DNA from: Thermodesulfobacteriota bacterium
GTDB lineage: Bacteria > Desulfobacterota > Desulfobulbia > Desulfobulbales > SURF-16
Length of the DNA: 64,000 nucleotides
Direction of reading: 5' to 3'
Assembly: GCA_039715015.1 (NCBI GenBank)
Contig: JBDLIE010000011.1
Span: 1,843 to 65,842 of the forward strand
Shown here in pieces: positions 15,144 through 54,599 of the stretch. Below the pieces are notes generated by a model. It worked only from the letters and a program-made list of their open reading frames with translations, searched no databases and was not told the DNA's origin. The position numbers were made by a program, and so were the translations under genes. Position 1 is the stretch's first letter; each line of letters starts with the position of its first letter.

Positions 15144-15953
15144 CTACTCTTTACCTGCTTCTGAGAGTGCCTTGATCTTTTTTACCTGGTAGCTTGAGAG
15201 ATCAAAATTTTCCTGGCCCATTGTTTGGTAAATGGTGATTTCTTTGAGCCGGCAGCGTGCTTTTCCCAGGGAGGATGTAAGTTGGATGTCGGTGGGCATG
15301 GCCGGGTAGTTTGGCGCCAGCTTTTGATAATCGCTGTAGATTGTTTTCTTGTCAGGTTCTATCAGAGAAAGGATGTGGCCTGTTTTCTTATCAAACCGCA
15401 TCTCGCCATCAATGAGTGGTAGTTTAACAGTATCTTTGCCGATTATGAGACTGCTGCCTGGCAAGATTTTAAGATCGTTAAAGTTGATCATCAAGGATGA
15501 AAAGATCTCCTGCGGCCCTTGGGCCGCTTCTTGTTGTTTTTTGTCGGTCTTGCCCACATATAGGGTCTGTTTGGACGGGATATAGACCTTTGTAACGCCT
15601 TCTTGAGCTACCATGTCAAAAAGGGTGGCGCCGAAGAGGTGGAAGGCTTTAATCCGCAGCCTGGTGTTTTCACCATCTTTGCTCAGGTAAATAATACCGG
15701 AAAAAGAGGAAGGCATCTTCGCCGGCGGCGGGTCCATATTGATCTGGAAATAGGCGGTGAAGGTGGCCAGACCCTGCGCTCTATGGCGCATGCTTTTTAG
15801 CAGGCTTTCAGGGGTTTCCCGGGCCCAGTTGATATGAAGCTCTGGTGCTTGCTCTGTTGGGAAACGACGCGTTTTGCAGCCCGCAGTGATCAGCAGCAAG
15901 AGAGACAGAGCAATAAGTAAAAGAAATGAAAAAGGGCGCTGATTAAGAGTCAT
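15144..15953 (-). CDS. Putative lipoprotein (LolB/DUF4292-like; family assignment tentative)
   Basis: Lipobox in LLLLITAGCKT. The ATG at 15953 forms an ATGA overlap with the stop of the upstream deacetylase gene. The ORF track starts at 15974. Confidence 0.6.
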   Translation of the reverse strand: MTLNQRPFSFLLLIALSLLLLITAGCKTRRFPTEQAPELHINWARETPESLLKSMRHRAQGLATFTAYFQINMDPPPAKMPSSFSGIIYLSKDGENTRLRIKAFHLFGATLFDMVAQEGVTKVYIPSKQTLYVGKTDKKQQEAAQGPQEIFSSLMINFNDLKILPGSSLIIGKDTVKLPLIDGEMRFDKKTGHILSLIEPDKKTIYSDYQKLAPNYPAMPTDIQLTSSLGKARCRLKEITIYQTMGQENFDLSSYQVKKIKALSEAGKE

Positions 15954-16783
15954 GGTTTTAGAGTTTTCAGACAATCTTCAATGGCGGTTAGTTTGAGGCG
16001 GTCCATGAGCAGTTCAAGACTGCGAATGGGGCTCCGCAAACCATAGGCAAGAACCGCTCTTTTGACAAGGGGTAATGCGCGGTCATACCGATGGTTGGTA
16101 AAATCCACCGGATGGAGAAAGAAGGTGGCGGGCGACCCTTTTTGGTTTAATGTTTTTACCTTCCGCAGAATGAGGGCCATGGGCCAGGTTCTAAGGCCCC
16201 AACCCCCTGCCGCCGGGACCTTGAGCCCTGCCAGGTTAAGGACCATGGGCGGAAATTCCCAAAGATTGCCCTCCATTATGTCACCAGCCAGGGTATGGAC
16301 CACCTCCGGAAAACCGGGGTCGCCAATGATGGGCATGGGGGCGTGGCTGGAATCATAACTATAGCCATTTCCAAGCAGGAGATCGATGGCCCAAGGCGTC
16401 TTTTGGTTCAGTGACCATTGCGGGGCCCGAAAGCCTTTGATCTGCTGGCCGCAGATTTCTGAGAGTAGTTGAGTGCCGGTCGCCAGATCTTCCTGGAAGT
16501 CCTGTGGTGACAGATCGTAGAGAAGCTGGTGATTGTCGGTGTGGTAGGCAATCTCATGACCGGCCTTGGCAATGCGTTCCACCAGATGCGGATGGCGGCG
16601 GGCAGAGTAGCCGAGGATGAAAAAGGTGGCCCTGGTTTTTCTCTCTGCCAGAAAGAGGAGAATTTTTTCAGTTGCCTCTTCAAGGATGGAAGGGTAGCTG
16701 TCCCATTCTTCCCGGGGCAGGAGATGGTCCACCTCGCAGATGTGAAACCAGTCCTCCCAGTCTATGGTGATACAGTTCTTCAC
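15950..16783 (-). CDS. Polysaccharide deacetylase (NodB-homology) family protein
   Basis: 277 aa. ITIDWEDWFH ... RATFFILGYSARRHPHLVERIAKAGHEIAYHTDNH is a typical NodB-fold motif pattern. Confidence 0.8.
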   Translation of the reverse strand: MKNCITIDWEDWFHICEVDHLLPREEWDSYPSILEEATEKILLFLAERKTRATFFILGYSARRHPHLVERIAKAGHEIAYHTDNHQLLYDLSPQDFQEDLATGTQLLSEICGQQIKGFRAPQWSLNQKTPWAIDLLLGNGYSYDSSHAPMPIIGDPGFPEVVHTLAGDIMEGNLWEFPPMVLNLAGLKVPAAGGWGLRTWPMALILRKVKTLNQKGSPATFFLHPVDFTNHRYDRALPLVKRAVLAYGLRSPIRSLELLMDRLKLTAIEDCLKTLKP

Positions 16784-17304
16784 CAGGACTGAGTCCCTGT
16801 TGGCAGCAGATTGTGCAGCATGCGGATTCTGTCCATCCTTCTGACAATCTTGGTGTTGTTCTTAAAAAGATACTCCTCCACTTCAATCGTCATTTTGTCA
16901 GCCTGGGAGAAGACATTCTGCAGGGCCACCAGGCGGCCATTTCCCTCAAAGGCAATATATTTTCCTGCTTCATTCTGAACGGCCTTAATTGCCGATACCG
17001 ATGGCAGATAGGTGTTGAGTGTTTCCTGGTTAAGGCTGCCTGTTTGCAGCAACTCTTCTTTATGTTCCGTGAGGATAGCGATACGTTTCTCGGCGGCCTG
17101 CCTGGAGTTTTCTCGATCAATGGGGTGGATTTGGCAGAGATCAAAGAGGGGCACCGTTTTAAAGTGGGAATGGCTCCTTTTGCGATGGATATCGAGAACC
17201 ACCTTGCCAAGGAGGACATCCGCCTCTGACATCTCTTTAAGTTCAGAACGCTTTCCCCACAGGTAATGACCAAGATTTTTAAGCCAGCTGAGCAGAGGTT
17301 TCAT
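16780..17304 (-). CDS. Hypothetical protein
   Basis: 174-aa ORF packed tightly between its neighbours (4-nt overlap downstream, 3-nt gap upstream). I recognise no family. Confidence 0.5.
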   Translation of the reverse strand: MKPLLSWLKNLGHYLWGKRSELKEMSEADVLLGKVVLDIHRKRSHSHFKTVPLFDLCQIHPIDRENSRQAAEKRIAILTEHKEELLQTGSLNQETLNTYLPSVSAIKAVQNEAGKYIAFEGNGRLVALQNVFSQADKMTIEVEEYLFKNNTKIVRRMDRIRMLHNLLPTGTQSW

Positions 17305-17307
17305 GAC

Positions 17308-17727
17308 TTACTGCTCTTCTTGGATCGTATTTTTGATCAACCTTCCCTCCGCTTCGGAAAGAGGGCCGTACCAGCGCGGATAATCCCAGCCGTAGCCCCA
17401 CCTGAAGCGGGTTGGCAGGATAGGAGTGCCCCCCACCCGAACACCGCCGAGCATGAGGTTGGCGATGGCCGGTTCCCCCACCTGGGCCACACATTCGCGG
17501 AGTTGTTTGTCTGCGTCCCGGCGCTGACTGTATGTGCCACCCAGCCAGTAGGCACGGTCATGTTCTGTACAGCATTCGAGCCACAGCTCTTTATGAGATA
17601 AGGTACCGTTAGGAAAACTACTGCAGCCATCCGTTGTGAAGGCCTTTAACTGGCTACTGCTCTGGCATGCAGCGAGCAACAATAGGGGCAGCAAGAGGAT
17701 AAGGGCAAATCGAATATGTGGGATCAT
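17308..17727 (-). CDS. Lipoprotein with a secreted-phospholipase-A2-like catalytic motif
   Basis: Lipobox LLLAACQ. CCTEHDRAY matches the sPLA2 CC-x2-HD-x2-Y spacing, and DGCSSFPNG lies upstream in the position of a Ca-loop. Confidence 0.55.
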   Translation of the reverse strand: MIPHIRFALILLLPLLLLAACQSSSQLKAFTTDGCSSFPNGTLSHKELWLECCTEHDRAYWLGGTYSQRRDADKQLRECVAQVGEPAIANLMLGGVRVGGTPILPTRFRWGYGWDYPRWYGPLSEAEGRLIKNTIQEEQ

Positions 17728-17746
17728 GGAGTCACCATAGCATCTT

Positions 17747-18904
17747 TTACGCTCTTTTTTGAAACACCGACCTGAGCTGGGGATCCCAGAGTGCCACCAG
17801 GGGAGAAAGGAAACGGCCTATGACTGGGCCGGGATCGCGGAGGCTAAGAAGATCGTCGCAGGTTGAGAGATCCCAGAAATCAGATGCTACCCGGCCGCGC
17901 TTGCTGACGAGATGGAGAAGGTCTGCAGGAAGGATATTACGCATCTTAAGGCCGACCTGGCTTTCAGGCAGCTCAAAGCCCTGGCCCCTGGCCCATTTAT
18001 AGAGAAGTAGCGGGAAATCGACTCCGGCCTTGATGGCCAGGGGTAACGAACCCCAAAAACGGGGGTTTATTTCCAGAAAATAGGCTGTGCCGGTGCGGGG
18101 ATCAACCTTAAACTCCACCATGGCAATCCCCTGCCATTTTATCTTTTTAAGCAAATTCACAGCATCACGCTCGGCCTGCTCATGGACTGTTGCCTGGCGC
18201 AGGGAGCTGGGCCCACCCTGGATGGGATATTCCCGTAGTCGTTTATGGGTAAAGGAGGCCAGGACATTTTGATCTTCGCCCATAAGTATTGAGACGCCAA
18301 GGCCGTAGCCGTCCCTGGCAACCATCTCTTGGGCCAGATATCTGTTGCCACTCTTGTGGATTATCGTCAGGGCTGCATCAAGGTCCTGAACATCATGGCA
18401 GTAAAACAGGCCGCGCCCTCCCTCGCCCATATCTGGTTTGAGAACCAGTGGCAGGCCAAGTTTATTAACGAGCTGTTCGCCATCTGTCTCTGGGGTAATG
18501 GGCTGGCCAGCAGGAGCTGTAATCCCGGAATCTAAGGCTGCCTTGTGTGCAGAAATTTTACTGGCTGCCTGCCGGAGGATTTCATGGGGAGCAAAGGGGA
18601 AGAGAATATGGGGTGTAAAGCGTTGCCGGGTCCGAGAAAGCAGGAGGAGAGTGGAAAGCTCCATGGGTATGAGGACATCGTAATCAAGGGTTTTGATCTC
18701 ACGATCAATGTCGTTTAGGAAGGCCTCAGGATTCTTGAGAGGGGCAGAGTAGGTGAAACGCCTGGAGGGGTATCTGCTCAGCATTCCGGCGGCCAGGGCG
18801 CTCGACTCACCCACCGTCACCCTGAGGCCATGGCTGGCCAGGGAGCGGATGGCAGCCACGGATTTGTTCCAGTGGCCATCGAGGATAAGGACGCGGGAGT
18901 TCAT
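17747..18904 (-). CDS. ATP-grasp domain protein (carboxylate-amine ligase type)
   Basis: 385 aa. The N-terminus MNSRVLILDGHWNKSVAAIRSLASHGLRV and the central/C-terminal ATP-grasp pattern (PLVLKPDMGEGGRGLFYC ... VEFKVDPRTGTAYFLEINPRFWGS) fit the family. Confidence 0.8.
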   Translation of the reverse strand: MNSRVLILDGHWNKSVAAIRSLASHGLRVTVGESSALAAGMLSRYPSRRFTYSAPLKNPEAFLNDIDREIKTLDYDVLIPMELSTLLLLSRTRQRFTPHILFPFAPHEILRQAASKISAHKAALDSGITAPAGQPITPETDGEQLVNKLGLPLVLKPDMGEGGRGLFYCHDVQDLDAALTIIHKSGNRYLAQEMVARDGYGLGVSILMGEDQNVLASFTHKRLREYPIQGGPSSLRQATVHEQAERDAVNLLKKIKWQGIAMVEFKVDPRTGTAYFLEINPRFWGSLPLAIKAGVDFPLLLYKWARGQGFELPESQVGLKMRNILPADLLHLVSKRGRVASDFWDLSTCDDLLSLRDPGPVIGRFLSPLVALWDPQLRSVFQKRA

Positions 18905-19818
18905 GATAATGAGGTGGTCAGCTCCTTGATATCGTCTAAAGAGGTGATACCCACCGTGGTGATGGAGCGATTGAGCCAGCGGATGATCCGGGTCAGGGCA
19001 CTGGTGGGATCGAGCACCACAAAGAGATCAATATCACGGTTCACAAGCTCTGCAATGGTGTGGTGCCAGTGCACTGTCTGCCAGAGCTGGTTTGCCACCT
19101 GATGGCCAATCTCCTTTGGAGAGTCATTAATATAGACTGGATGGCTGCCGGCAATGATCGGTAAGATAGGCGGCGACAGGGGCAGGGCCTCAAAGAATCG
19201 GTACAGGGCCGCACCTGCCTCCTGAAGAGGTTCACCATGGTAAGGATATTCAAAGGGAAGCTCCACCACCCGCAAAGCACCGGCCTCAAGGCAGGAGGCC
19301 TTAAAAGAGGCGAAATCCCCTTTGGCAATGGAGGCGATGGTCTGACTCTTGTTGTTAACCAGAGAAAGCCAGCCTTGTTGCGGCAGCCTATCAAGCTCCT
19401 CTTGGACATGATCAACAGGCAGGCCGATCACTGCCACCATGAGAAATTCATGGGGGGTATTGGTCAAGGAAATGAGATCAAAGGCGTGGCTGATGGCCTC
19501 CATGCCTTGACTTGGAGAGAGGCAGTTGCAACCGGCCATGGCAGCATAGAGACCGGAGCTGTAGCCGCTGATCAGAGAGGGCTTGACCCCTTGTTTCTTG
19601 AGGGTCTCGCTTAAGGTATGGCTCAGGCAGAAAACGCCCAGTTGGGCGGCGAGATCGCTTTCCACAGCGGTCTGGTGAAAATCATCATAGGCTGGACACG
19701 CCTGAATGCGGAGATCTTCATAGATCAAGCGCACCTCGTCGCCATACAGATCTGCCAGCGGCTTTTCCGGTACAGCACCCTGGCCGGGATAGAGAAAGGC
19801 GATTTTCGGTTGGCTCAT
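18901..19818 (-). CDS. Malonyl-CoA:ACP transacylase-like acyltransferase (FabD family)
   Basis: 305 aa with FLYPGQGA and the nucleophile elbow GYSSG (GxSxG). It overlaps the ATP-grasp gene by 4 nt. Confidence 0.8.
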   Translation of the reverse strand: MSQPKIAFLYPGQGAVPEKPLADLYGDEVRLIYEDLRIQACPAYDDFHQTAVESDLAAQLGVFCLSHTLSETLKKQGVKPSLISGYSSGLYAAMAGCNCLSPSQGMEAISHAFDLISLTNTPHEFLMVAVIGLPVDHVQEELDRLPQQGWLSLVNNKSQTIASIAKGDFASFKASCLEAGALRVVELPFEYPYHGEPLQEAGAALYRFFEALPLSPPILPIIAGSHPVYINDSPKEIGHQVANQLWQTVHWHHTIAELVNRDIDLFVVLDPTSALTRIIRWLNRSITTVGITSLDDIKELTTSLS

Positions 19819-19853: not shown

Positions 19854-21320
19854 CTACAACCTGATCTCCGGTGGTACTTCCTGGAAGTTGTCTTGGACCC
19901 ATTCCATCTGGCGCGCTTCATAATAGGCGTAACGCATAATGAGCTTATAGGCCATGCGGATGAATTGATTGGACGAGAAGAACATCTTCCAGAAGATGGA
20001 TGGCCGGGTGTAGTATTTTTTCAGGTATTTCTTCTGCAGGGCCAGGATCTCGGCGCCGCTATAGGCGTTATTATGGATCACCGGATGCATGAAATCATAT
20101 TTTGAAAAATCGCGCTCTTCAATGCGGCCATCCGCCTCGGCCTGGGCATAATAACGGGTGCCGGGCAGGGGCGTGGTCAGGGTCATGACCAGGAAGTCAC
20201 CGATCTGGGCCGCAAATTTATAGATGGTCTGCAAGGTCTCTTCAGTGTCATCTACATCGCCGAACATGACGTTGGTCATTACCATGATGCCGTGGGAGCG
20301 CAGCAGCTCGGCCGCCTCTTTGATCTGCTCTACGCTCTGGTTCTTAGTATAATTCTTCAGAGTCTCCGGGGAGATCGATTCCACCCCCAGCATGACCTCG
20401 TAGAGACCAAGCTTTTTATACTCGGGCAGCAGGTCGCGGTCGCGGAGGATATCCTTGATCCGGGACTGGAACCAGAAATCGCATTTGAGGTTTGATTTGC
20501 CCAGGGACTCCAGGAACGATTCATTGCGGGCTCTGGTCTGGTTGAAGGAATTCTCGTTAAAGACAAAGAGGGATTTGCCAAATTTTTTATTAAGCATCTC
20601 CATCTCTTTGACCACCAAGGGGCCGCTCCTACCGCGCCAGTTGGCCTGCCAGAGCTGCGACTCGGAGCAATAGGAGCAATGGTCTCCGCAGCCGCGGCTG
20701 GTGGAGATGCCCACCGCCCGTCTCCCCATGCCATGCAGGTAGTAGGTGGGGTTGTCCATGTCCATCAGATGGTAGCCGGGCATGGGAAGGGTGTCGAGGT
20801 CGTCGATCAGGGCCCGGGGGCTATTGCATACTATTTCGCCATCCTTCTGATATGCCACTCCGGCAATGGTACAGCCATTTTTGCAACCAGGCAGGCCTTC
20901 AAGGAGTTCAACAAAGGTCTTTTCGCCTTCACCCAGAATGATGAAATCAACCTCTGGGGCCTGGCTGAACATCACCTCGTAGTTCAGGGTGAAATGACCG
21001 CCACCACCGATGATGGTGGCTTCAGGCAGGGTGCGGCGCACCAGGCGGGCGGCATGGATGGCATCCTTATGGAAGGTGGCAGCTTGGCTGGTAATACCGA
21101 CGACATCGTAGTTACCTTGGCGCAGGCGGTTTTCCAGGTCGGTCCAGGGCTGACTCAGGGTGGTGGAGTCGATAACTTCAATATCGTAGCCCTCGCGTTC
21201 CATATAGGCCCCCAAGGCCATGAGGCCGGGGGAGGGCATCCACATACGCAGGGCAGCAAAAATCTGATGGGGCGGGTCAAGCAGTAGTATCTTCACAGCT
21301 AAATCGACTCCAGTAATCAA
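19854..21320 (-). CDS. B12-binding-domain radical SAM enzyme (subfamily A; paralogue of 50932..52476)
   Basis: The CxxxCxxC motif is RGCGDHCSYCSES. The N-terminal Rossmann-like B12-type domain contains KILLLDPPH...GGGGHFT. The start is uncertain (TTG 21320 or GTG 21296). Confidence 0.9.
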   Translation of the reverse strand: MITGVDLAVKILLLDPPHQIFAALRMWMPSPGLMALGAYMEREGYDIEVIDSTTLSQPWTDLENRLRQGNYDVVGITSQAATFHKDAIHAARLVRRTLPEATIIGGGGHFTLNYEVMFSQAPEVDFIILGEGEKTFVELLEGLPGCKNGCTIAGVAYQKDGEIVCNSPRALIDDLDTLPMPGYHLMDMDNPTYYLHGMGRRAVGISTSRGCGDHCSYCSESQLWQANWRGRSGPLVVKEMEMLNKKFGKSLFVFNENSFNQTRARNESFLESLGKSNLKCDFWFQSRIKDILRDRDLLPEYKKLGLYEVMLGVESISPETLKNYTKNQSVEQIKEAAELLRSHGIMVMTNVMFGDVDDTEETLQTIYKFAAQIGDFLVMTLTTPLPGTRYYAQAEADGRIEERDFSKYDFMHPVIHNNAYSGAEILALQKKYLKKYYTRPSIFWKMFFSSNQFIRMAYKLIMRYAYYEARQMEWVQDNFQEVPPEIRL

Positions 21321-29223: not shown

Positions 29224-29258
29224 GGTTGAGCTCCGGCAAGGGAGCAGATTAATCTTCG

Positions 29259-36414: not shown

Positions 36415-36499
36415 GGAAAACGGTGCGCTGGCCCAGACCATGTTTTGGTTGGTGGTTGGCTGCTCTATCTTTCTCCCAACGTTTCCACATCTTTGTCCC

Positions 36500-46287: not shown

Positions 46288-46288
46288 A

Positions 46289-47068: not shown

Positions 47069-49383
47069 GTTCAGTTCAACCCAGAGAAGCAGCCATCATC
47101 GGCATGGGAGCGATTACTCCAGCCGGCTCCGGAGTTAAGGCCTTTGCCAAAGCCCTTTTTGCCGGTGAGTCGCAGTTTGCTGATATTTCTCTTTTTGATG
47201 CCTCCGGTCATCGAACCGGGGTGGGGGCGGAGCTTGTTCTTCCAGACTATCATCCCTGCAGGCTTGATGAGAAGCTCCTGGGCCGCACTGATATTGTTGG
47301 TCTTGCCGCTGCCCATGAGGCCCTGAACCAGGCCGGACTCCTCGATGCTGAGGGCCGGGTAACTGCCGGAGCCAAGACCGCTCTGGTCTGTGCTACGGCA
47401 GGTGGGGCAATCCTTGGTCTGGAGGCCTTTTTTCGTCATCGTCATTACGGCGAATCGGCTGACTCCCGTCAGCTTCTCACCTCTTTTTGCCTCTCAGCCC
47501 TAGCCACCAATATTGCCAAGGAATTTCAGATCAGCGGTCCGCGGACCACCACTGCCACTGTCTGTTCATCCAGCGGTGTGTCTATGGCAGTGGGCCTTGA
47601 GATGCTCAGGGAAAGATCGGATATCGACTATGTAGTGGTTGCCGCCTCTGAGGCCCTCTGCGAGGTTACCCACGGCGGCTTTAATGCCCTGCGCTCCGTG
47701 GCCCCTGATTGCTGTCGGCCTTTTGCCGAGGATCGACAGGGCCTTGTCTTGGGCGAGGCGGGCAGTGCCCTGGTCCTCTGTCGCCCAGATAAAGCTGGCA
47801 AAGAGGCGCCCTGTTTTTCCGGCTATGGCCTGAGTACGGATCTCTACCATTTTACCGCTCCTGATCCAAAGGGTGGGGCCAGCCGCTTTACCCTTGAGGA
47901 GGCCCTGGCAGATGGCCAGGCTCTGCCCGCAGAGATAGATTACATCAATTGCCATGGTACAGGGACGCCAAAAAATGACGAGGCCGAGGTTCAGGGTATA
48001 AAGAATACCCTGGGAGAACGGAGTAAAGAGATCCCCCTTTCTTCGACAAAGTCGATGTTTGGCCACACCCTTGGGGCTGCCAGCTTACTGGAGGCCATTG
48101 CCACAGTGCTTGCTTTGGACAAACAGGCAGCCCCTCCCACCGCCCACCTCCATAACCAAGACCCGGAGCTTGATCTTAATTTTACTCCTCTGGCCAGCCA
48201 GCCAGCTCCGATCAAAACGGCCCTGTCTAACTCCTTTGCCTTTGGCGGTTCCAACGTCTCTCTGGTCTTGAAGAAGAGCTGTTCGCGTCAACAGGGTGGG
48301 AAAAAGGAGCAAGGTGCGCATGCCGTTATTACGGGCATTGGTATTGTTTCTCCTTTGGGTGTGGGCTGCCAGTCCTTTATTAAATCGCTGGATCAAGGTG
48401 ACTCCGGGTTGTGCTCCTTTGCTGAGTTTGGTGAGGAGTGGCAGGAATATCAAGGTGGAATTGTTGATATGGCAGCTGTTCGCCAAGGCATTGAGCCGCG
48501 GCGCCGTAGGCGTCTCAACCGCCTTGGCTCGTTTCTCACCGTAGCCGTTAACGAAGCTCTGGCCCAGGCGGGCCTAGTTGGCGAGGACCTCAATGATGCC
48601 CATCTGGCTTATGGCTCTGCCTTTGGCTGTTCCAGTAATGTCCATAATTTTTACACCCAGCTCCTCAATCACGGTGCCACAGCAGCCTCTCCACAGGATT
48701 TCATGTTGTCGGTGACCAATGCCCCGGCTGCCTTGGTGGCTCAGCACCTTGGGGTGCAAGGGCCGGTCTGGGTCTTTGTCGAGGATGAGGTGTCCTGGGA
48801 GGTCTCCCTTCACTGGGCTGTCCAGCTTATTGAAACAGGCCGGGCCAAGCGGGTGATTGTTGCTGCCGCCGATGAGATCAGCGACTCCATTATCGCCATC
48901 CATGGCGCCTTGGGTTTTCTTGATCAGCCCGGTTATCATCTTGGAGAAGGGGCGGTGGCCATGGTTCTTGAGGGCGAAGAGGAGGCGGAGAGGAGGGCTG
49001 TCTCCCCTTTGGGCGTTGTTGGCAGCTGTCTTTCCTCCCAAGATGTGAGCTGTGACCCCATGACCTTCAGCAGGGACGCTGGCCTGATTGCTCAGTCGGT
49101 GCAGAACTGTCTCGGTGATAGAGAAAGGGCTTCCCTGGAGATCTTTGGTCCGGAAAACGGTATTGTTGACGAGGTGGCCCGGCAAGCTCTGGATGGTGTG
49201 TTGTCAGGCGATTCGGGGAAAAATGTTATCCGTTCCAGGGCCGGTGATTCCGGTCTTGGCGGTGGACTGGCCCTGGCCGCAGGTCTGCTGTCCAGTCAAG
49301 ACATTAATCAGGTGCTGACTCTTTCCATGGGCCGGGGAGGGGTACAGGCGACAACTTTGGTTGAACGGAGAGGTGGCCAGTGA
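47065..49383 (+). CDS. Fused double ketosynthase: N-terminal active KS plus C-terminal degenerate KS/CLF-like domain
   Basis: 772 aa. The N-terminal half has ATVCSSS, HFTAPD and NCHGTGT. The C-terminal half (from HAVITGIGIVSPLG) has a thiolase fold but no HGTGT-type His motifs. Confidence 0.85.
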   Translation: MSSVQPREAAIIGMGAITPAGSGVKAFAKALFAGESQFADISLFDASGHRTGVGAELVLPDYHPCRLDEKLLGRTDIVGLAAAHEALNQAGLLDAEGRVTAGAKTALVCATAGGAILGLEAFFRHRHYGESADSRQLLTSFCLSALATNIAKEFQISGPRTTTATVCSSSGVSMAVGLEMLRERSDIDYVVVAASEALCEVTHGGFNALRSVAPDCCRPFAEDRQGLVLGEAGSALVLCRPDKAGKEAPCFSGYGLSTDLYHFTAPDPKGGASRFTLEEALADGQALPAEIDYINCHGTGTPKNDEAEVQGIKNTLGERSKEIPLSSTKSMFGHTLGAASLLEAIATVLALDKQAAPPTAHLHNQDPELDLNFTPLASQPAPIKTALSNSFAFGGSNVSLVLKKSCSRQQGGKKEQGAHAVITGIGIVSPLGVGCQSFIKSLDQGDSGLCSFAEFGEEWQEYQGGIVDMAAVRQGIEPRRRRRLNRLGSFLTVAVNEALAQAGLVGEDLNDAHLAYGSAFGCSSNVHNFYTQLLNHGATAASPQDFMLSVTNAPAALVAQHLGVQGPVWVFVEDEVSWEVSLHWAVQLIETGRAKRVIVAAADEISDSIIAIHGALGFLDQPGYHLGEGAVAMVLEGEEEAERRAVSPLGVVGSCLSSQDVSCDPMTFSRDAGLIAQSVQNCLGDRERASLEIFGPENGIVDEVARQALDGVLSGDSGKNVIRSRAGDSGLGGGLALAAGLLSSQDINQVLTLSMGRGGVQATTLVERRGGQ

Positions 49384-50819
49384 CAACGGATGTGATCGTC
49401 ATTGGTGGCGGCCTTGCCGGTCTCAGCACAGCCGCCCTTCTTGCCAACAAGGGCCGGAAGGTGCTGCTGCTTGAGAAAAATCAGCGCCTCGGTGGTTATG
49501 CCACGAGCTACACCAGTCATGGCCATCGTTTTGATATTGCCACCCAGGCCCTGGGCGGCTGCGGTGAGGGAGGGGTGGTTCACTCCATCCTTGTCGAGCT
49601 TGGTATTGCCGAGCAGATACGTTTTCTGGCCTGTGAGCCTGCTCGTATGTATTATCTGCCGGATGGCAAAACCTATATTCAACACGGTTTTCTCCGGGCC
49701 CAGCAGGAGGAACTGAAAAAGGCTTTTCCCGCATTTCTAAGGGAGATTGATCGTTGTTTTGCAGTCTGGCAAAATCTTTTTGAAGAGCTTGAGACCATCG
49801 CCACAAAGCCTGGCGGCGAGGTGGCATTTCAGTTTGCCCGCAGTTTTCCAAATCTGGCCCGCTACAGCAGAACAACGGTTCAGCAGTTCTTCAATGAACT
49901 TGCCATCCCACAAGCGCTGCAGGTTCGCCTGGCTTGCCGGGCAGGCTATTGTATGTTGCCCCTGCATCGCTTGTCCCTGGTGGCCTTTGCCTGCACGGAG
50001 ATGAGCTTTGCCAGCGGCGCCTGGATGGTTGAGGGCGGGGTGAGCCGCTTGGCCGATGTTCTGCGGAACTATATTGTTGAACAGGGCGGTGAAGTAAGGG
50101 CGCGAAGTCGGGTGACCTCCCTTGTCTCTGAGCATGAGAGGCTGGTTGGGGTGGAGGTCAGTGGTGAAAAAATATCCTGCAAGCAGGTCGTGTTGGCCTG
50201 TGATGGCAGCGATTTGTTGAGGGGGTTGCCAGGCCTTTCTGACAAATATCTGAGCAGACGAGGCTCTTTTGAAAAGAGCGGCTCCTATTTTATCAGCTAT
50301 TATCAAGTGGCCAAAGATGCTGTTCATGGTCTCGCTCCAAACATCGAGGTCTGGCCTGGTCAGGAAAGTAAGCTTGCCGGAAAGGAAAATGTCGGGGTAT
50401 ATTACCTGCTCATTCCTTCCCTGGTTGATCCTGGTTCGGCACCAGAGGGATACCATTCTTTTTGCTTGAGCGTGCCTCTGGCAGCAGGAGTGTCCCCCGC
50501 AGCTTCTGAGCGCCGCCGCCTTCGGCAGCAATTGGAAAAAGAGGTTGAGGCCCAATTCCCTACTCTTAAGGGTAAACTTCGCTTTCTCTTTGAACTTGCT
50601 CCGGAGCATCTGCAGCTCATGACGGCAAACCCCAGCGGCTCTGCCTATGGCTGGGCCCAGACGCCGGAGCAGGCTGGTATCCACCGCTTAAGCATTAAGA
50701 CAGCGGTGGAGAACCTTTATTTGGCCGGGCACTGGACCATGCCCGGTGGCGGTATTGCCGCGGTAATGACCTCAGGTCGTCTCTGCGCCCAGGCTGTGTT
50801 AGAAGTAGAAGGGAAGTGA
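49380..50819 (+). CDS. FAD-dependent oxidoreductase, phytoene desaturase (CrtI) family
   Basis: VIVIGGGLAGLSTAALLANKGRKVLLLEKNQRLGG, with C-terminal LYLAGHWTMPGGGIAAVMTSG. 479 aa. Confidence 0.85.
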   Translation: MTTDVIVIGGGLAGLSTAALLANKGRKVLLLEKNQRLGGYATSYTSHGHRFDIATQALGGCGEGGVVHSILVELGIAEQIRFLACEPARMYYLPDGKTYIQHGFLRAQQEELKKAFPAFLREIDRCFAVWQNLFEELETIATKPGGEVAFQFARSFPNLARYSRTTVQQFFNELAIPQALQVRLACRAGYCMLPLHRLSLVAFACTEMSFASGAWMVEGGVSRLADVLRNYIVEQGGEVRARSRVTSLVSEHERLVGVEVSGEKISCKQVVLACDGSDLLRGLPGLSDKYLSRRGSFEKSGSYFISYYQVAKDAVHGLAPNIEVWPGQESKLAGKENVGVYYLLIPSLVDPGSAPEGYHSFCLSVPLAAGVSPAASERRRLRQQLEKEVEAQFPTLKGKLRFLFELAPEHLQLMTANPSGSAYGWAQTPEQAGIHRLSIKTAVENLYLAGHWTMPGGGIAAVMTSGRLCAQAVLEVEGK

Positions 50820-50888: not shown

Positions 50889-50931
50889 TCTTTAATACGT
50901 AAATTTGATAAACGATTTCTAAGACGAGAAA

Positions 50932-52476
50932 ATGGCAAAGAATACAACGTTAAAATTTCTGCTCATCGATCCTCCCCACCGCATCTGGGATATTCTCAAG
51001 GCCTGGATTCCCAGCCCCGGCTGTTTGCAGCTGGCCGCCTATCTTGAGGATTATTTCCAGATCGATTTCATGGACTGCACCTTAAATAAAAATCCCTGGC
51101 ATGATCTGGAGAAAAAGCTGCGGGAGGAAAAGCCGGATGTCGTTGGTATTTCTATCGGCTGCACCTATTTCACCTATGACGGTTATAACGCTGCTTCCTT
51201 GGTGCGGGACGTGCTGCCGGATGCCATTATCCAGGTAGGCGGCGCCCATCCCACCTTAAACGCCGAAGAGTGTTTTCGGGAATGTCCTGATATCGATTAT
51301 ATCTGTATGGGGGAAGGGGAGCATACCACCCGTGAGTTTCTGGAGAATATTGCTGACGGCAACCCAGACTTTTCCCATATCAAGGGCCTGGCCTATCGTG
51401 ATCCCAACAGTGATGGAATCATTATTACGGACAAGCGGCCACTCATTGAGGATCTCGATTCCCTGCCTATTCCTGCCTACCACCTGGTGGATATGGAGCA
51501 CCCCTACATTGGGCTGCCTTCCGAAGGTAAACGAGCCTTTCTGGTTAATTTTGCCCGCGGTTGCGGATATCGCTGTAAATTTTGTTCCGAGTCAAAGTTC
51601 TGGGACCGCAAGTGGCGGGGCCGTTGCCCTGAACTGATCGGTGAAGAGCTTGAATTGCTTAAGAAAAAGTATAACCGTGACACCTTTTATGTGGGCGATA
51701 ATATCTTCAACTTCACCCGGGAGCGCTCCAAGGGCTTTATTGCCGAGATGAAGAAACGTCAGCTGGGCCAGAATTTCTGGCTCCAGAGCCGGGCTGATAT
51801 TGTTGTCCGTGATGAAGACCTCATGACCGGCTTTAAAGAGGCTGGTGTGTACCAGTTTATGATCGGTGTTGAGTATTCGGAGCAGGAGGTCTTAAACACC
51901 CTGGACAAGGATATCTCCATGGCCACGGTGGAAAAGGCCATGCAGATTCTCAAGAAGCATGAGTTTATGATCATGGCCACCCTGATGATCGGCCATTGGG
52001 ATGAGACCAAGGAGGATCGCCAGAAGCTCTTTGATTTCTGTACCAAATATGTCAATCATTTCGGCCTCAATGTGGTCACTCCCTTGCCTGGCACCGAGTT
52101 CCATCAGGAAATGAAGGAGCTTGGCCGCATCAAGAACGAGGATTACCGGAAGTTCGATTATATCCAGGCCATTATGCCCACCAAGGAGATCCATGATCTT
52201 GATAAGATCACAGAATTACACCTCGGCATGATCCGTAAGTTCTACTGGCGGCCCATTGAGCTGTGGCGCATGTTTTTCTCCAAGAATAAGATATTACGCC
52301 ATCATCACCGTTACTTCATGAAGTACGGTTTTGAGGTCATGCAGCATGAGGTTTTTGGCAAACCCCTTTGGGTCCAGGATAATTTCCAGACCTTTGAGAG
52401 TTTCCTGCGGGAGCGTGGCAAGCCCATTCACGGTAGTTTCAGCGGTTTTGAGCCGGATGAGACGGTGGAGGTTTAA
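50932..52476 (+). CDS. B12-binding-domain radical SAM enzyme (subfamily A)
   Basis: The CxxxCxxC motif is RGCGYRCKFCSES. The N-terminus KFLLIDPPHRIWDILKAWIPSPGCLQLAAYLE parallels 19854..21320. The shared C-terminal motif is WVQDNFQ. Confidence 0.9.
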   Translation: MAKNTTLKFLLIDPPHRIWDILKAWIPSPGCLQLAAYLEDYFQIDFMDCTLNKNPWHDLEKKLREEKPDVVGISIGCTYFTYDGYNAASLVRDVLPDAIIQVGGAHPTLNAEECFRECPDIDYICMGEGEHTTREFLENIADGNPDFSHIKGLAYRDPNSDGIIITDKRPLIEDLDSLPIPAYHLVDMEHPYIGLPSEGKRAFLVNFARGCGYRCKFCSESKFWDRKWRGRCPELIGEELELLKKKYNRDTFYVGDNIFNFTRERSKGFIAEMKKRQLGQNFWLQSRADIVVRDEDLMTGFKEAGVYQFMIGVEYSEQEVLNTLDKDISMATVEKAMQILKKHEFMIMATLMIGHWDETKEDRQKLFDFCTKYVNHFGLNVVTPLPGTEFHQEMKELGRIKNEDYRKFDYIQAIMPTKEIHDLDKITELHLGMIRKFYWRPIELWRMFFSKNKILRHHHRYFMKYGFEVMQHEVFGKPLWVQDNFQTFESFLRERGKPIHGSFSGFEPDETVEV

Positions 52477-52762: not shown

Positions 52763-53143
52763 TTAGTTTGTTGCCAGTAGACGCTTGTAAGTCTCTTTCC
52801 ACTCCTTGGCCGTGGCCAGGGCCTGACCACGGCGGAGGAAGACCCTGATTTCGCAGGAGACCATGCATAGCTCATTTTTGTCGTTTAGATAATCGACCTG
52901 GACCACGTAGAAGATTGAGCTGTAGGTCTTTTTTTGAAAGGCACGCAGGTTGTTGATTCGGTCCATGGCCACCTTGAGCTGGATAGCCGCAGTATTTTTG
53001 GTGGCAGGAATATCGAGCTTAAAGCCTTCTTGGGTTAGAGTTGCCTTGCCAAGTTGCTGGCGTTCCGGCAGGCCCAGGGTGGAGGAGTGGAAGATGATTT
53101 TTGAGGTGATGGCAAGGGGTGACTTTGGCGCAAAAAAAGACAT
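52763..53143 (-). CDS. Hypothetical protein
   Basis: 126-aa ORF with AGGAG 5 nt upstream of the ATG. I recognise no family. Confidence 0.45.
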   Translation of the reverse strand: MSFFAPKSPLAITSKIIFHSSTLGLPERQQLGKATLTQEGFKLDIPATKNTAAIQLKVAMDRINNLRAFQKKTYSSIFYVVQVDYLNDKNELCMVSCEIRVFLRRGQALATAKEWKETYKRLLATN

Positions 53144-53201
53144 GCCTGCTCCTGGTTTGTAGAAAAAATAAATAAGTTCACCGGCTTAGGCCGATTTTAA
53201 T

Positions 53202-54599
53202 ATGCTCAGTAAATCCAACAAAAAAATTCTTTTTATCTCGCCGGCCAGAAACCGTGGACCGGATGAGGATTTTGTCTTCAAACTCAGCTTCCTTAACCTG
53301 CCTTATCTGGCGGCAGTGACACCGGCTGACTATGAGGTCGAGATTATAGACGAAGAGAAGGAGGTTATCAACTTTGATGATCACGTCTGGTTGGTTGCAC
53401 TCACCGCTCAGACACCCATTGCGCCGCGGGCCTATGAGGTGGCTGATGAGTTCAGGAAGAAGGGGGTGGCCACCGTTATGGGCGGCGTTCACGCCTCCAC
53501 CCTGCCTGATGAGGCCTTGGCCCATGTTGACTCGGTCATCATCGGTGAAGGAGAGTTTGTCTGGCAGGACCTCCTGGCCGATCTTGAAAAGGGTGCGCTC
53601 AAAGAACGCTATACAAGTGGTACCGACCACTCCCTGGCAGCACTGCCCTGGCCCCGCCGTGATCTCCTTAATCCCCGCCATTATATTCCCCTTACCCTTC
53701 TAGAAACCACGCGCGGCTGTCCCCACCAATGCGATTTCTGCGGGGTCTCCAAGTTTTTCGGCCATCGCTATCGCAAGCGGCCCATTGATGAGATCACGGA
53801 GGAGCTTGAGTCCTTATTCGGTGGTGGCTTTCGTCATGGTATCAGCCGTTTTCTGGCCAAACTGGGCCTTGATATGCCCTATTTTATCGAGCGCCGTCTC
53901 ATCTATTTTATCGATTCTAATTTTGCCGCTGATAAGAAATATGCCCTGGAGATTATGGAGGTGCTGGAGCGCCTCGATGTTAAGTGGTGGTGCCATGCCA
54001 CCGTTGATATCGCCCAGGATCAGGAGTTCTTGCAAAAAATGAATGATTCCGGCTGTCTGGCTGTGAATGTCGGCTTTGAATCATTGTCGCCGGAAAACCT
54101 GAAGACCATGCATAAGTCCTATGCGGCCCGTCATGATTATGCTGCTGCCATCAAGGCCTTTCATGATAATAACATCGGCGTTATGGGCACCTTTGTGGTG
54201 GGCTTTGACGACGAGGACAGCTCCATCTTCCGCCGGATCTTTGATTTTTCCATCGATAACCAGCTTGACTGGTCCCTGACCTTTATCAGGACCCCCTACC
54301 CAGGCACCAGCCTCTATAATCAGATGGAGGATGAGGGGCGCATCGCCGTCCGCGACTGGGAAAAATATGACACCCTGCACTGTGTATTCAAGCCAGGGAA
54401 GATGAGTGTTGTTGAGCTGGAAGAGGGGCTGAAATGCCTGTGGCGCTACACCTTCTCCCTGTCGTCCATCTATCGCCGCATTATCAAAGGGCCGCGGGTC
54501 CATCCTCTCTTTTATCTCGGCATGAATATGCAGTTCTTTCAGATGGTGCGCAAGTGGGTGACCTCCTATGACCCTTTTATCGACAAGGACAAAAGGTAA
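53202..54599 (+). CDS. B12-binding-domain radical SAM enzyme (subfamily B)
   Basis: The CxxxCxxC motif is RGCPHQCDFCGV. The N-terminal domain reads WLVALTAQTPIAPRAYEVADEFRKKGVATVMGGVHASTLPDEA. Confidence 0.9.
   Translation: MLSKSNKKILFISPARNRGPDEDFVFKLSFLNLPYLAAVTPADYEVEIIDEEKEVINFDDHVWLVALTAQTPIAPRAYEVADEFRKKGVATVMGGVHASTLPDEALAHVDSVIIGEGEFVWQDLLADLEKGALKERYTSGTDHSLAALPWPRRDLLNPRHYIPLTLLETTRGCPHQCDFCGVSKFFGHRYRKRPIDEITEELESLFGGGFRHGISRFLAKLGLDMPYFIERRLIYFIDSNFAADKKYALEIMEVLERLDVKWWCHATVDIAQDQEFLQKMNDSGCLAVNVGFESLSPENLKTMHKSYAARHDYAAAIKAFHDNNIGVMGTFVVGFDDEDSSIFRRIFDFSIDNQLDWSLTFIRTPYPGTSLYNQMEDEGRIAVRDWEKYDTLHCVFKPGKMSVVELEEGLKCLWRYTFSLSSIYRRIIKGPRVHPLFYLGMNMQFFQMVRKWVTSYDPFIDKDKR

Follow-up and report, generated by a model that had tools for sequence, protein, structure and literature searches.

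A divergent, radical SAM-rich gene cluster in an uncultured Desulfobulbales bacterium, predicted to make and export an unusual envelope lipid

Genes for acyl-chain synthesis and a series of radical SAM (rSAM) enzymes lie in two opposed arms on a 64,000-nucleotide stretch of DNA (the window) from a Thermodesulfobacteriota bacterium whose nearest relatives are Desulfurivibrionaceae/Desulfobulbaceae MAGs, raising the question of whether the arms form one system and what such a system would make. The gene cluster of this uncultured Desulfobulbales bacterium is real and intact, and spans about 45 kb (Table 1). The interval 15144-54599 is densely coding, its two gene-dense arms (18 ORFs on the minus strand, 15144-35035; 17 on the plus strand, 35374-54599) diverging from a 338-bp spacer. 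The ORF map, in which 26 of 34 junctions overlap or lie within 35 nt (eight of these being 4-nt overlaps), bears out the packing and divergence described in an earlier sequence-only reading of the locus. Five promoter-like sites occur in the spacer against 1.9 expected, including 35134-35106 on the minus strand (10/12) and 35264-35292 on the plus strand (9/12); as consensus matches alone, they hint weakly at promoters for both arms. The 725-bp "gap" at 52477-53201 is not empty, as its minus-strand gene encodes a protein 46% identical over 107 aa (E 2.4e-30) to an ORF at the same position in Oceanidesulfovibrio indonesiensis; PDB and fold searches with this protein returned no match.

Table 1. 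Features of the cluster and its probable right-hand extension (window positions; bits, score against the named profile).
Position	Strand	Feature	Evidence
15144..15974	-	LolB-like outer-membrane lipoprotein, 276 aa, cluster left end	lipobox LITAGC
15950..16783	-	NodB-type polysaccharide deacetylase + DUF3473	PF01522, PF11959; TIGR03006 194.5 bits (below 276)
16780..17727	-	Two lineage-specific ORFs: 174-aa hypothetical; 139-aa lipoprotein	CCxxHD (PLA2-like) motif in the lipoprotein
17747..18904	-	ATP-grasp ligase	Pfam CPSase_L_D2, ATPgrasp_Ter, ATP-grasp_3
18901..19818	-	MdcH/FabD-like acyltransferase (AT)	Acyl_transf_1 33.9 bits (cutoff 32.7); MdcH 117.7, FabD 71.6, both sub-cutoff
19854..21320	-	B12-binding rSAM, BchE-like subgroup	paralogue of 50932, 39% identity
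21277..22188	-	LpxL/PIM-type lipid acyltransferase (LPLAT)	PF03279 116.8 bits
22188..23666	-	CrtI-family flavoprotein a	Amino_oxidase; crtI_fam 130 bits (below 238)
23659..26085	-	MMPL/RND (HpnN-like) lipid exporter	PF03176; HpnN 199 bits, sub-cutoff
26270..27862	-	B12-binding rSAM, Ta0216-like	HMM
28036..29349	-	U32-family protein	PF01136
29259..29753	-	DUF3592 membrane protein	Pfam
29756..32969	-	SDR (29756), LuxC-like acyl reductase (30514), LuxE-like acyl-protein synthetase (31905)	Pfam
33240..33698	-	FabZ/ApeP-like dehydratase	FabZ NF000582 62.7 bits (below 113)
33701..35035	-	B12-binding rSAM, HpnJ-like subgroup (with 43807, 53202)	HMM
35036..35373	.	Divergent intergenic region	promoter-like sites, both strands
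35374..36000	+	DUF4410 lipoprotein, first gene of plus arm	Pfam
36024..36293	+	ApeE-like acyl carrier protein (ACP)	NF006617 74.2 bits (cutoff 70 passed)
36413..37734	+	4HBT thioesterase (36413), GT2 glycosyltransferase (36940)	Pfam/NCBIfam
37673..40079	+	KS (37673, active triad), CLF-like partner (38826, without triad)	Pfam, active-site inspection
40083..41444	+	TIGR04072 "lipid biosynthesis B12-binding/radical SAM protein"	391.9 bits (trusted cutoff 360)
41417..42298	+	Class I SAM methyltransferase a (UbiG-like)	family profiles
42533..45153	+	SPASM rSAM (42533), B12-binding rSAM e (43807)	HMM
45018..47068	+	Sm_multidrug_ex membrane protein, methyltransferase b (45610), LolA-like carrier (46289)	Pfam; LolA2_flexi 60 bits (below 125) for 46289
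47065..50819	+	Fused KS-CLF (47065, 772 aa), CrtI-family flavoprotein b (49380)	Pfam/NCBIfam
50932..52476	+	B12-binding rSAM f (BchE-like)	HMM
52763..53143	-	Conserved 126-aa protein within apparent gap	O. indonesiensis counterpart
53202..54599	+	B12-type rSAM g	HMM; B12-binding domain 31.1 bits, slightly under Pfam cutoff 32.1
54577..58725	-	Operon: HCS/IPMS-like synthase (57514-58725), LeuC-like (56301-57533), LeuD-like (55805-56296), Pyr_redox_2 flavoprotein (54577-55908)
58874..60575	+	265-aa lipoprotein, FabG/FlxB-like ketoreductase (59847-60575)	lipobox, profiles; FabG NF004200 279.4 bits (above 273), FlxB 280.9 (below 340)

Comparative genomics indicates that both arms belong together as one system. 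Two further Desulfobulbales MAGs show this divergent arrangement (comparison loci L004; L082 with L085), and O. indonesiensis carries plus-arm genes together with the minus-arm LuxE-LuxC-SDR and U32-rSAM-MMPL genes in one co-directional locus. Single operons in Geobacteraceae mix the arms as well (deacetylase-GT2-SPASM-LpxL-ACP-3 B12 rSAM-AT-4HBT-TIGR04072-...-KR-KS-CLF-LolA-LolB), and homologues from both occur together in 44 of the 49 long loci near a TIGR04072 homologue. To judge from the shared layout, this co-linearity and the mixed loci, the arms are not independent; every test run that could have refuted the sequence-only reading favoured it. Against a single system, the modules are separable: in GCA_024277655.1 the plus arm ends early, after the first methyltransferase. 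The LuxC-like and ATP-grasp homologues of Dissulfurirhabdus thermomarina are listed with differing longest-contig sizes, which suggests that the system is split there. An ATP-grasp orthologue was not among the top matches in O. indonesiensis, whose locus was viewed only as far as the MMPL gene.

The right border had been placed at 54599, which is probably too short, since the genes at 54577-58725, and probably at 59847-60575, are conserved companions of the system elsewhere. The HCS/LeuCD-like/flavoprotein operon is likely part of the cluster and the FabG-like ketoreductase probably so; in O. indonesiensis and D. thermomarina these genes likewise accompany the system. All four operon genes lie inside the O. 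indonesiensis cluster, although their products share only 28-49% identity with those of the window, which counts against inclusion; in D. thermomarina, HCS-LeuC-LeuD overlap the LolB-like gene and are 55-62% identical. The linkage takes three different genomic arrangements, and cluster genes were not found near 80 generic HCS loci. FabG-like genes occur near a TIGR04072 homologue in 58 fetched loci, and the ketoreductase with its neighbouring lipoprotein forms a possible extension. The cluster probably spans about 43.6 to 45.4 kb, from 15144 to at least 58725 and probably to 60575.

Eight intact rSAM genes were found, seven with a B12-binding domain (19854, 26270, 33701, 40083, 43807, 50932 and 53202) and one of SPASM type (42533), all keeping the CX3CX2C motif; nine had been claimed (eight plus one), and the packed interval leaves no space for a ninth. 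Their earlier placement in class B agrees with the HMMs, which assign B12-binding families. Only 40083 clears any curated family cutoff, and related loci number at least 589 among species-representative genomes. Identity among the paralogues within the window is at most 39%, whereas orthologues of each in other lineages reach 51-83% identity; every one is distinct and conserved. Orthologues of 26270 (68% and 83% identical) adjoin U32 in L084 and L085, those of 33701 are 81-91% identical in L082 and L004, and O. indonesiensis has counterparts of the 42533-43807 pair (52% and 59%), 50932 (79-81%) and 53202 (70%). The seven cobalamin-type enzymes belong to four old subfamilies.

Pfam and NCBIfam upheld the chain-building assignments of the sequence-only reading (ACP, 4HBT, KS, CLF-like, fused KS-CLF, Acyl_transf_1 at 18901, FabZ-like and SDR), as well as the GT2, LpxL-type acyltransferase, LolA-like and MMPL genes, two CrtI-family flavoproteins, two methyltransferases, LuxE/LuxC and U32. 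The Cys/His/His triad is kept in KS 37673 and the N-terminal half of the fused protein, and active-site inspection found it absent from the CLF-like partner and the C-terminal half. O. indonesiensis has a 769-aa orthologue of the fusion, and the dehydratase orthologue in L082 bears PF22817 (ApeP-like). Homologues of 4HBT and GT2 occur in 44/49 and 31/49 long loci, respectively. The SDR-LuxC-LuxE triad is kept in L004, L082 and L084, with LuxC orthologues being rare (67 matches in all); the SDR accompanies LuxE/LuxC and probably does not serve as chain-elongation ketoreductase. The U32 protein, 69% identical to its O. indonesiensis orthologue, is proposed as a candidate O2-independent hydroxylase by analogy with UbiU/UbiV (PMC6747719, PMC10990095).

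Among the envelope genes, in which four lipoboxes were seen, the LolB-like protein matched a Pfam-LolB protein of an Oryzomonas cluster (hhalign probability 90.9%, E 1.2e-6), and in both L085 and L086 a homologue of 259-261 aa comes after the deacetylase. These two loci keep the block AT-ATP-grasp-deacetylase-LolB-like but have no counterparts of the 16780..17727 ORFs between ATP-grasp and deacetylase; family searches with these ORFs gave nothing beyond weak PLA2G12 (E 0.095) and phrog_6098 matches. Deacetylase and LPLAT homologues are present in 29/49 and 26/49 long loci. MMPL orthologues occur in L084 and L085, and the DUF4410 lipoprotein is kept in L004, L082 and L083. The ATP-grasp and deacetylase genes were both missing from the earlier gene list.

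How does the cluster relate to known systems? For Kuenenia, D. psychrophila, Geobacter and Pelobacter, Rattray 2009 describes the same mix of genes, which supports the resemblance proposed in the sequence-only reading. The link to those clusters is confirmed by the TIGR04072 cutoff passed by 40083 and by the best solved relative of the KS, 9s5h_B (300 bits, 38.7% identity), a chain that we infer to be anammox amxFabF2. On the other side, the CLF-like and FabZ-like proteins do not stand closer to the anammox versions than to canonical FabF/FabZ. The claim of an aryl-polyene (APE)-like type II scaffold likewise stands: ApeE from the APE cluster of A. baumannii (9LS6) is the best solved match to the ACP, and the LolA/LolB/MMPL/GT2/LPLAT/TE genes agree in their roles with those given for APE lipids (10.1101/2020.12.19.423268). 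The orphan class marked by TIGR04072 carries the antiSMASH label "ladderane". We found no characterised product for this or any orthologous non-anammox locus in the literature up to 2026, in line with the earlier statement that none was known to be assigned to such a cluster in sulfate reducers; this "ladderane-like" class has been known since 2009, and novelty is lower than had been implied.

The product is most likely an unusual, heavily tailored outer-membrane lipid, in line with the earlier prediction of a tailored, exported lipid; its class is assigned by inference alone. Polyketide-like acyl chains would be grown on the ACP, with an enoyl reductase not encoded in the cluster. The rSAM enzymes are predicted to tailor them through C-methylation, the forming of C-C bonds or anaerobic oxidation, the two CrtI-type flavoenzymes by desaturation or saturation, and the U32 enzyme by O2-independent hydroxylation, with further tailoring by the two methyltransferases, while LuxE/LuxC/SDR could reduce a terminal carboxyl group to the aldehyde or the alcohol. 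GT2, the NodB-type deacetylase, the ATP-grasp ligase and the LpxL-type acyltransferase would assemble an amino-sugar head group, a step that may take a small di- or tricarboxylic acid from the HCS/LeuCD-like module. Transport to the outer membrane would fall to the MMPL pump, the LolA-like carrier and the LolB-like lipoprotein, a route like that proposed for aryl-polyene lipids. With a probability of roughly 0.7, the locus would be one co-functional cluster for the synthesis and export, under anoxic conditions, of an unusual envelope lipid, and would count as an expanded member of the TIGR04072 orphan class.

The locus is large and intact, a new member of an orphan class of gene clusters known since 2009 rather than a novel type of system, and to this class our analysis adds a conserved homocitrate-synthase-like (HCS)/LeuCD-like module, a LolB-like partner, a modular structure and cultured carriers of the full system. 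The gene-dense, divergent organisation proposed by the sequence-only reading was borne out by the ORF listing and HMM searches, with 18 minus-strand ORFs (15144-35035) and 17 plus-strand ORFs (35374-54599) diverging from a 338-bp spacer. At 26 of the 34 junctions the neighbours are at most 35 nt apart or overlap (eight 4-nt overlaps); the remaining eight are gaps of 112-725 nt. The ORFs have about the lengths of their orthologues elsewhere, and thus the locus looks intact. Promoter-like hexamers, as consensus matches, occur on both strands of the spacer (five found against 1.9 expected), and an Rfam scan of the whole window revealed no riboswitch, cobalamin riboswitches included, or other RNA family. 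HMM searches of the ORFs upheld most of the earlier gene assignments, from which an ATP-grasp ligase and a NodB-type deacetylase were missing.

Features of the locus and its borders; a single number is a start coordinate
Feature	Position	Strand	Role or subfamily	Basis
LPG_synthase_C protein, then two fused ABC exporter genes	5401-9950
LolB-like lipoprotein	15144-15974	-		hhalign
NodB-type deacetylase with DUF3473	15950	-
174-aa ORF	16780-17304	-
139-aa predicted lipoprotein	17308-17727	-
ATP-grasp ligase	17747	-
MdcH/FabD-like acyltransferase (AT)	18901	-	chain assembly	HMM
B12-binding radical SAM	19854	-	BchE-like; 39% identity to 50932
LpxL-type acyltransferase	21277	-	head group, export	HMM
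CrtI-family flavoprotein	22188	-	tailoring	HMM
MMPL protein	23659	-	head group, export	HMM
B12-binding radical SAM	26270	-	Ta0216-like
U32 protein	28036	-	tailoring	HMM
SDR	29756	-	chain assembly	HMM
LuxC	30514	-	tailoring	HMM
LuxE	31905	-	tailoring	HMM
FabZ-like dehydratase (DH)	33240	-	chain assembly	HMM
B12-binding radical SAM	33701	-	HpnJ-like; 34-36% identity among 33701, 43807 and 53202
Spacer	35036-35373
ACP	36024	+	chain assembly	HMM
4HBT thioesterase	36413	+	chain assembly	HMM
GT2	36940	+	head group, export	HMM
Ketosynthase (KS)	37673	+	chain assembly	HMM
Chain-length-factor (CLF)-like protein	38826	+	chain assembly	HMM
B12-binding radical SAM	40083-41444	+	stands alone	TIGR04072
Class I methyltransferase	41417	+	tailoring	HMM
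SPASM radical SAM	42533	+
B12-binding radical SAM	43807	+	HpnJ-like
Class I methyltransferase	45610	+	tailoring	HMM
LolA-like protein	46289	+	head group, export	HMM
Fused KS-CLF	47065	+	chain assembly	HMM
CrtI-family flavoprotein	49380	+	tailoring	HMM
B12-binding radical SAM	50932-52476	+	BchE-like
126-aa protein	52763-53143	-
B12-binding radical SAM	53202-54599	+	HpnJ-like	just below Pfam cutoff
Pyr_redox_2 flavoprotein	54577-55908	-
LeuD-like protein	55805-56296	-
LeuC-like protein	56301-57533	-
HCS/IPMS-like synthase	57514-58725	-		HMM
265-aa lipoprotein, then ketoreductase	58874-60575
FabG/FlxB-like ketoreductase (KR)	59847-60575
Hybrid sensor histidine kinase/response regulator	60599-63286	-

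In the alignments, the Cys/His/His triad is kept in the stand-alone KS and in the N-terminal half of the fused protein, and absent from the CLF-like protein and the C-terminal half of the fusion, so that the locus encodes a split KS/CLF system and a second, fused one. The LuxE-like protein is the sole adenylating enzyme among the ORFs scanned and always occurs with LuxC and the SDR; orthologues of this SDR accompany LuxE/LuxC in every case seen (the GCA_024277655.1 and Oceanidesulfovibrio indonesiensis loci). Comparison of both methyltransferases with the PDB gave no specific link to the published anammox methyltransferase.

Among the envelope components, hhalign matched the lipoprotein family at the left end to the Pfam-LolB protein that a related cluster encodes (90.9%, E 1.2e-6), and the LolA-like and LolB-like partners are located at opposite ends of the locus. 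Four predicted lipoproteins were counted for the system. A single-sequence AlphaFold2 model of the LolB-like protein was unusable (mean pLDDT 39.5). In the 139-aa predicted lipoprotein, a CCTEHD motif recalls phospholipase A2, and the protein has a match to phrog_6098 (E 5e-13); a PDB search gave none, so the phospholipase likeness is one of motif only. This gene and the adjoining 174-aa ORF are absent at the orthologous position in L085, a locus of a Desulfobulbales MAG with a window-like layout, and in that of Dissulfurirhabdus thermomarina.

Nine radical SAM (rSAM) enzymes, eight of them with a B12 domain, had been counted from the sequence alone. We found eight: seven of the B12 type, which HMMs placed in class B (B12-binding) families as predicted, and the one SPASM-type enzyme already named. 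The CX3CX2C motif is intact in all eight. Our search for a ninth yielded none, as all ORFs are accounted for and the sole gap (52477-53201) holds a non-rSAM gene. This apparent gap of 725 bp contains the conserved gene of the 126-aa protein; it has an rSAM gene on either side, both on the other strand, and the protein shares 46% identity with the ORF in the corresponding place in O. indonesiensis (L084 6456-6905). The protein had no family, PDB or fold match; its model reached a mean pLDDT of 55.5, and the Foldseek matches against the PDB were meaningless (nothing at E<0.02, TM <0.4). The O. indonesiensis ORF was considered as the missing dehydratase and rejected because it had no similarity to one.

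Pairwise comparison divided the B12-type paralogues of the window into old subfamilies. Each has a one-to-one orthologue in other lineages at 51-83% identity, so the copies are non-redundant and under strong constraint. Only the enzyme at 40083 exceeded a curated family cutoff, matching TIGR04072 ('lipid biosynthesis B12-binding/radical SAM protein') over the full model length with 391.9 bits against a cutoff of 360.

Species-representative genomes contain at least 589 loci that encode relatives of the TIGR04072 enzyme. The best 80 of these belong almost entirely to Thermodesulfobacteriota (Desulfobacterales, Syntrophales/Syntrophobacterales, Geobacteraceae), apart from one MAG each of Nitrospiraceae and Anaerolineales, and no anammox-labelled organism is among them; the closest relatives are Desulfurivibrionaceae and Desulfobulbaceae MAGs with 79-85% identity. 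In 49 loci spanning at least 15 kb around TIGR04072 homologues, the neighbours included the 4HBT thioesterase (44 loci), ACP (41), GT2 (31), deacetylase (29), KS (28, plus 14 fusion-like), SPASM rSAM (26) and LpxL-type acyltransferase (26); the order in the window is ACP-4HBT-GT2-KS-CLF-rSAM, which likewise places the rSAM among type II FAS/PKS genes. Homologues from both arms are combined in 44 of the 49. Geobacteraceae such as Oryzomonas japonica carry, in a single direction, deacetylase-GT2-SPASM-LpxL-ACP-three B12 rSAMs-AT-4HBT-TIGR04072 and, further along, KR-KS-CLF-LolA-LolB. The cultured O. indonesiensis has a co-linear cluster, lipoprotein-ACP-4HBT-GT2-KS-CLF-TIGR04072-methyltransferase-SPASM-rSAM-membrane protein-methyltransferase-LolA, continuing with KS-CLF-CrtI-rSAM-rSAM-LuxE-LuxC-SDR, four genes on the other strand, and U32-rSAM-MMPL. 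Since genes of both arms are co-linear or mixed elsewhere, independence of the arms, which would have told against the sequence-only reading, does not hold. The arms are parts of one system made of separable modules.

The divergent layout of the window recurs in two Desulfobulbales MAGs, in one of which, GCA_024277655.1, the plus arm goes no further than the first methyltransferase. There the truncated arm is followed by cytochrome c/NrfD-type genes (L082 12724-17302) and the LuxC-like gene is in two pieces (L082 384-1756); this cluster looks decayed or rearranged. The LuxC-like protein had 67 matches versus more than 1100 for the TIGR04072 protein, so the expanded version of the cluster is much rarer than the core.

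The right border, drawn at 54599 in the earlier reading, is probably too short. All four genes of the HCS operon directly beyond it lie inside the O. indonesiensis cluster (L084 12181-16341), and in D. thermomarina (L086 12851-15851) an AT-ATP-grasp-deacetylase-LolB-like block is followed by HCS-LeuC-LeuD in overlapping frames, with 55-62% identity to the window proteins. As the operon is thus tied to the system in two other lineages, we place the end of the cluster at 58725 or beyond. Neither the synthase nor the LeuC-like protein reaches the curated cutoff of any LeuA, NifV, LeuC or homoaconitase-type model that it matched; the LeuD-like protein alone passes a model, the broad subfamily TIGR02087 (113.1 versus 108.95 bits). 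No isopropylmalate-dehydrogenase-type gene is found beside the operon. In a metagenome scan with the HCS alignment, 80 generic HCS-like loci had no lipid genes nearby; it recovered only LeuA/NifV-like loci of at most 39% identity and no orthologues, and serves as a negative control only.

Beyond the operon, the FabG/FlxB-like ketoreductase probably belongs to the cluster and probably is its KR; FabG-like genes lie within 10 kb of a TIGR04072 homologue in 58 loci. This stand-alone gene follows that of a 265-aa lipoprotein without family match, and directly after it comes the BarA/TorS-like hybrid kinase, which could be a cluster regulator. Upstream of the cluster, the gene of a protein with a phosphatidylglycerol lysyltransferase C-terminal domain, followed by the ABC exporter genes, may form a separate membrane-lipid modification/export unit.

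The modularity raises the alternative that two or more unrelated clusters are merely neighbours here: a lipid biosynthetic cluster in the plus arm, an envelope/LPS-modification locus in the minus arm and, to the right, housekeeping genes of the leucine/lysine type. Such a patchwork could explain the plus-arm truncation in GCA_024277655.1 and the several wide junctions, and the D. thermomarina LuxC-like and ATP-grasp homologues, which may be on separate contigs, would fit it too. However, genes of both arms are re-assorted yet still clustered across three orders, the LolA-like and LolB-like partners lie at opposite ends of the locus, and the HCS/LeuCD genes, themselves below the LeuA, NifV and LeuC equivalog cutoffs, lie within the cluster or overlap its genes in two other lineages. 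We therefore regard chance neighbourhood as unlikely.

Returning to a single lipid system, its scaffold is aryl-polyene (APE)-like, in agreement with the sequence-only reading. The ACP passed NF006617 and, among solved structures, is closest to ApeE from the aryl-polyene cluster of A. baumannii. The anchor and export set of aryl-polyene lipid (APEL) clusters is present, with GT2, 4HBT thioesterase, LpxL-type acyltransferase (LPLAT), LolA-like and MMPL proteins recognised by HMM and the LolB-like protein by hhalign. The locus also shares a type II KS/CLF plus a second KS system, an ApeP-like DH, a KR and a methyltransferase with the APEL clusters of E. coli CFT073, Xenorhabdus doucetiae and Acinetobacter baumannii. 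The APE core comprises KS (apeO, apeR), CLF (apeC), ACPs (apeE, apeF), DHs (apeI, apeP), KR (apeQ) and a transporter (apeM) (10.1101/2020.12.19.423268). Against this core, the window has KS, CLF, fused KS-CLF, KR candidates and MMPL, but one ACP and one DH instead of two each. A COG4648 ApeG-type protein was not seen, and the ORFs scanned gave no ammonia-lyase or chorismate-lyase family match as an aromatic-starter supply. The eight rSAMs, two CrtI-like proteins, U32, LuxC/E, deacetylase, ATP-grasp and HCS/LeuCD genes are without APE counterpart.

A true aryl-polyene/flexirubin pigment cluster, making an APE lipid with the rSAMs incidental or of minor tailoring, thus appears quite improbable. 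It would fit the ACP and the anchor and export set, the ApeP-like annotation of the DH orthologue in GCA_024277655.1, and LolA2_flexi and FlxB as best or near-best NCBIfam matches, albeit with scores under cutoffs. Apart from the lacking starter genes and the single ACP and DH, it leaves eight conserved rSAM genes interleaved with core genes, their orthologues highly conserved, whereas the published APE gene set has none.

We give similarly little credence to the anaerobic polyunsaturated fatty acid/hydrocarbon pathway of Rattray et al., in which CrtI-like proteins and rSAMs desaturate FASII products to C31:8/C31:9-type hydrocarbons. Desulfotalea psychrophila, which has similar loci, does produce C31:8/C31:9 hydrocarbons (PMC2649909), and the window encodes two CrtI-family flavoproteins. 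In other bacteria such hydrocarbons come from a Pfa synthase and OleABCD (PMC6463001), but Ole-type genes are absent from the window and the PfaA matches are weak, domain-level hits of stand-alone KS/AT proteins (58.8-88.5 and 18.1 bits versus a cutoff of 1010). This pathway would also leave the glycosyltransferase, deacetylase, ATP-grasp, LPLAT, LolA/LolB and eight rSAM genes unexplained.

Hopanoid (Hpn) side-chain tailoring and export families and BchE were the best-scoring named families for several of the rSAMs and the MMPL protein. In common with HpnH, HpnJ, HpnR, HpnN and BchE, the locus combines B12/SPASM rSAMs, which in those systems act on lipids or tetrapyrroles without O2, with an MMPL-family exporter. 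The scores nevertheless fall far under the cutoffs (BchE 251 versus 481, HpnJ 145 versus 578, HpnN 199 versus 752), and the context is ACP/KS-based rather than isoprenoid.

The resemblance to the clusters of Rattray et al. (2009), to which the sequence-only reading had pointed, was confirmed by the gene mix and by the TIGR04072 match. For Kuenenia, D. psychrophila, Geobacter and Pelobacter, that study described rSAMs, phytoene-desaturase-like genes, a PaaK-like ligase, a glycosyltransferase, a deacetylase, methyltransferases and a membrane protein (PMC2649909). By published description for Kuenenia and D. psychrophila, the window shares with the candidate 'ladderane' FASII-like clusters of Kuenenia/Brocadia (Cluster I, kuste3603-3608; kuste3335-3352) and the syntenic D. 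psychrophila/Geobacter/Pelobacter loci an ACP, a KS with inactive partner, phytoene-desaturase-like flavoproteins, B12 rSAMs, SAM methyltransferases, a polysaccharide-deacetylase-like protein, a glycosyltransferase, a PaaK/LuxE-like ligase and an MMPL-type membrane protein. Unlike those clusters, it merges the parts into one divergent locus, has eight rSAMs where the Kuenenia clusters have four putative SAM radical enzymes, and adds U32, LuxC, ATP-grasp, fused KS-CLF, LolA/LolB-like and HCS/LeuCD-like components.

The best PDB match of the stand-alone KS is 9s5h_B (300 bits, 38.7% identity; canonical FabF 261 bits). We infer this chain to be Brocadia fulgida amxFabF2, since its Cys170/His303 correspond to the published C165/H298 with a five-residue offset. 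An active KS with a triad-less partner is likewise a feature of anammox Cluster I, which comprises amxACP, amxFabZ, amxFabF2, amxFabFmut, PDH and a B12 rSAM. However, the CLF-like protein is no closer to the anammox version than to the canonical enzyme, the ACP matches ApeE best rather than an anammox-type ACP, and the FabZ-like protein prefers canonical FabZ (E 4.7e-11) over 8ayi/7qv0 (E ~5e-7 to 1e-6), presumed to be amxFabZ from the molecule name. The nearest relatives are Desulfurivibrionaceae/Desulfobulbaceae MAGs, not anammox planctomycetes.

Ladderanes are not expected from this cluster. A ladderane (cyclobutane) lipid pathway as in anammox bacteria, although the TIGR04072 enzyme, the KS, and the parallels to Kuenenia Cluster I (KS, inactive partner, CrtI-like, B12 rSAM) and kuste3335-3352 (deacetylase, methyltransferases, rSAMs) favour it, is very unlikely: ladderanes were not detected in D. 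psychrophila despite its syntenic loci (PMC2649909), reports of them are limited to anammox bacteria, the rSAM family extends over at least 589 loci with no anammox-labelled organism among the best 80, and neither the FabZ-like nor the CLF-like protein is specifically anammox-like. Clusters of the TIGR04072 type are labelled 'ladderane' by antiSMASH, whose rule also fires in Desulfobacterota and other non-anammox phyla (10.1101/2022.12.20.521206).

Taken together, the overall interpretation of a tailored, exported lipid was supported. The sequence itself shows a dedicated carrier protein, two condensing systems and a thioesterase, enzymes for reduction and dehydration, the eight rSAMs, all intact, and proteins for head-group assembly and envelope export. 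Chains would be elongated on the ACP without a cluster-encoded enoyl reductase, and then tailored by a relay of rSAMs, the CrtI-type flavoenzymes, the U32 enzyme and the two methyltransferases; the U32 proteins UbiU/UbiV carry out O2-independent hydroxylation (PMC6747719, PMC10990095). LuxE, LuxC and the SDR may reduce a carboxyl group. GT2, deacetylase, ATP-grasp and LpxL-type acyltransferase would build an acylated amino-sugar anchor, and we speculate that the HCS/LeuCD-like module may feed a small acid to the ATP-grasp ligase. By analogy with APE lipids, MMPL, the LolA-like and LolB-like proteins and the four predicted lipoproteins would deliver the product to the outer membrane.

A more far-reaching possibility, with a probability of roughly 0.3, is that the product is an undescribed family of envelope lipids, in which a relay of seven cobalamin rSAMs and the SPASM enzyme methylates, cross-links or cyclises polyketide-like chains on the ACP, which are also hydroxylated independently of O2 by U32 and joined to an amino-sugar head bearing a homocitrate/alkylmalate-type acid, the KS/CLF and TIGR04072 core performing the same early chemistry as anammox Cluster I. 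The claim that no product had been assigned to such a cluster stands, as neither later work nor the literature searched yielded one for non-anammox clusters of this class. A 2026 review knows of only two ketoacyl (fatty-acid or polyketide-derived) lipids proposed to be rSAM-modified, the ladderanes and the Jaw5 product (PMC13459092). No ladderane-cluster enzyme has a proven link to ladderane synthesis.

The locus is a large, intact example of the ladderane-cluster enzyme toolkit in a non-anammox lineage. Because the complete system occurs in cultured anaerobes, lipidomics and genetics are feasible, unlike in slow-growing anammox enrichments; if the more far-reaching possibility holds, O. indonesiensis, D. 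thermomarina and Geobacteraceae would be the first tractable organisms in which to establish what the ladderane-cluster rSAM does. If the product were found, several orphan B12-rSAM subfamilies would gain a chemistry, the many 'ladderane' cluster calls in anoxic metagenomes would become interpretable, and the source of unexplained sedimentary lipids might emerge.
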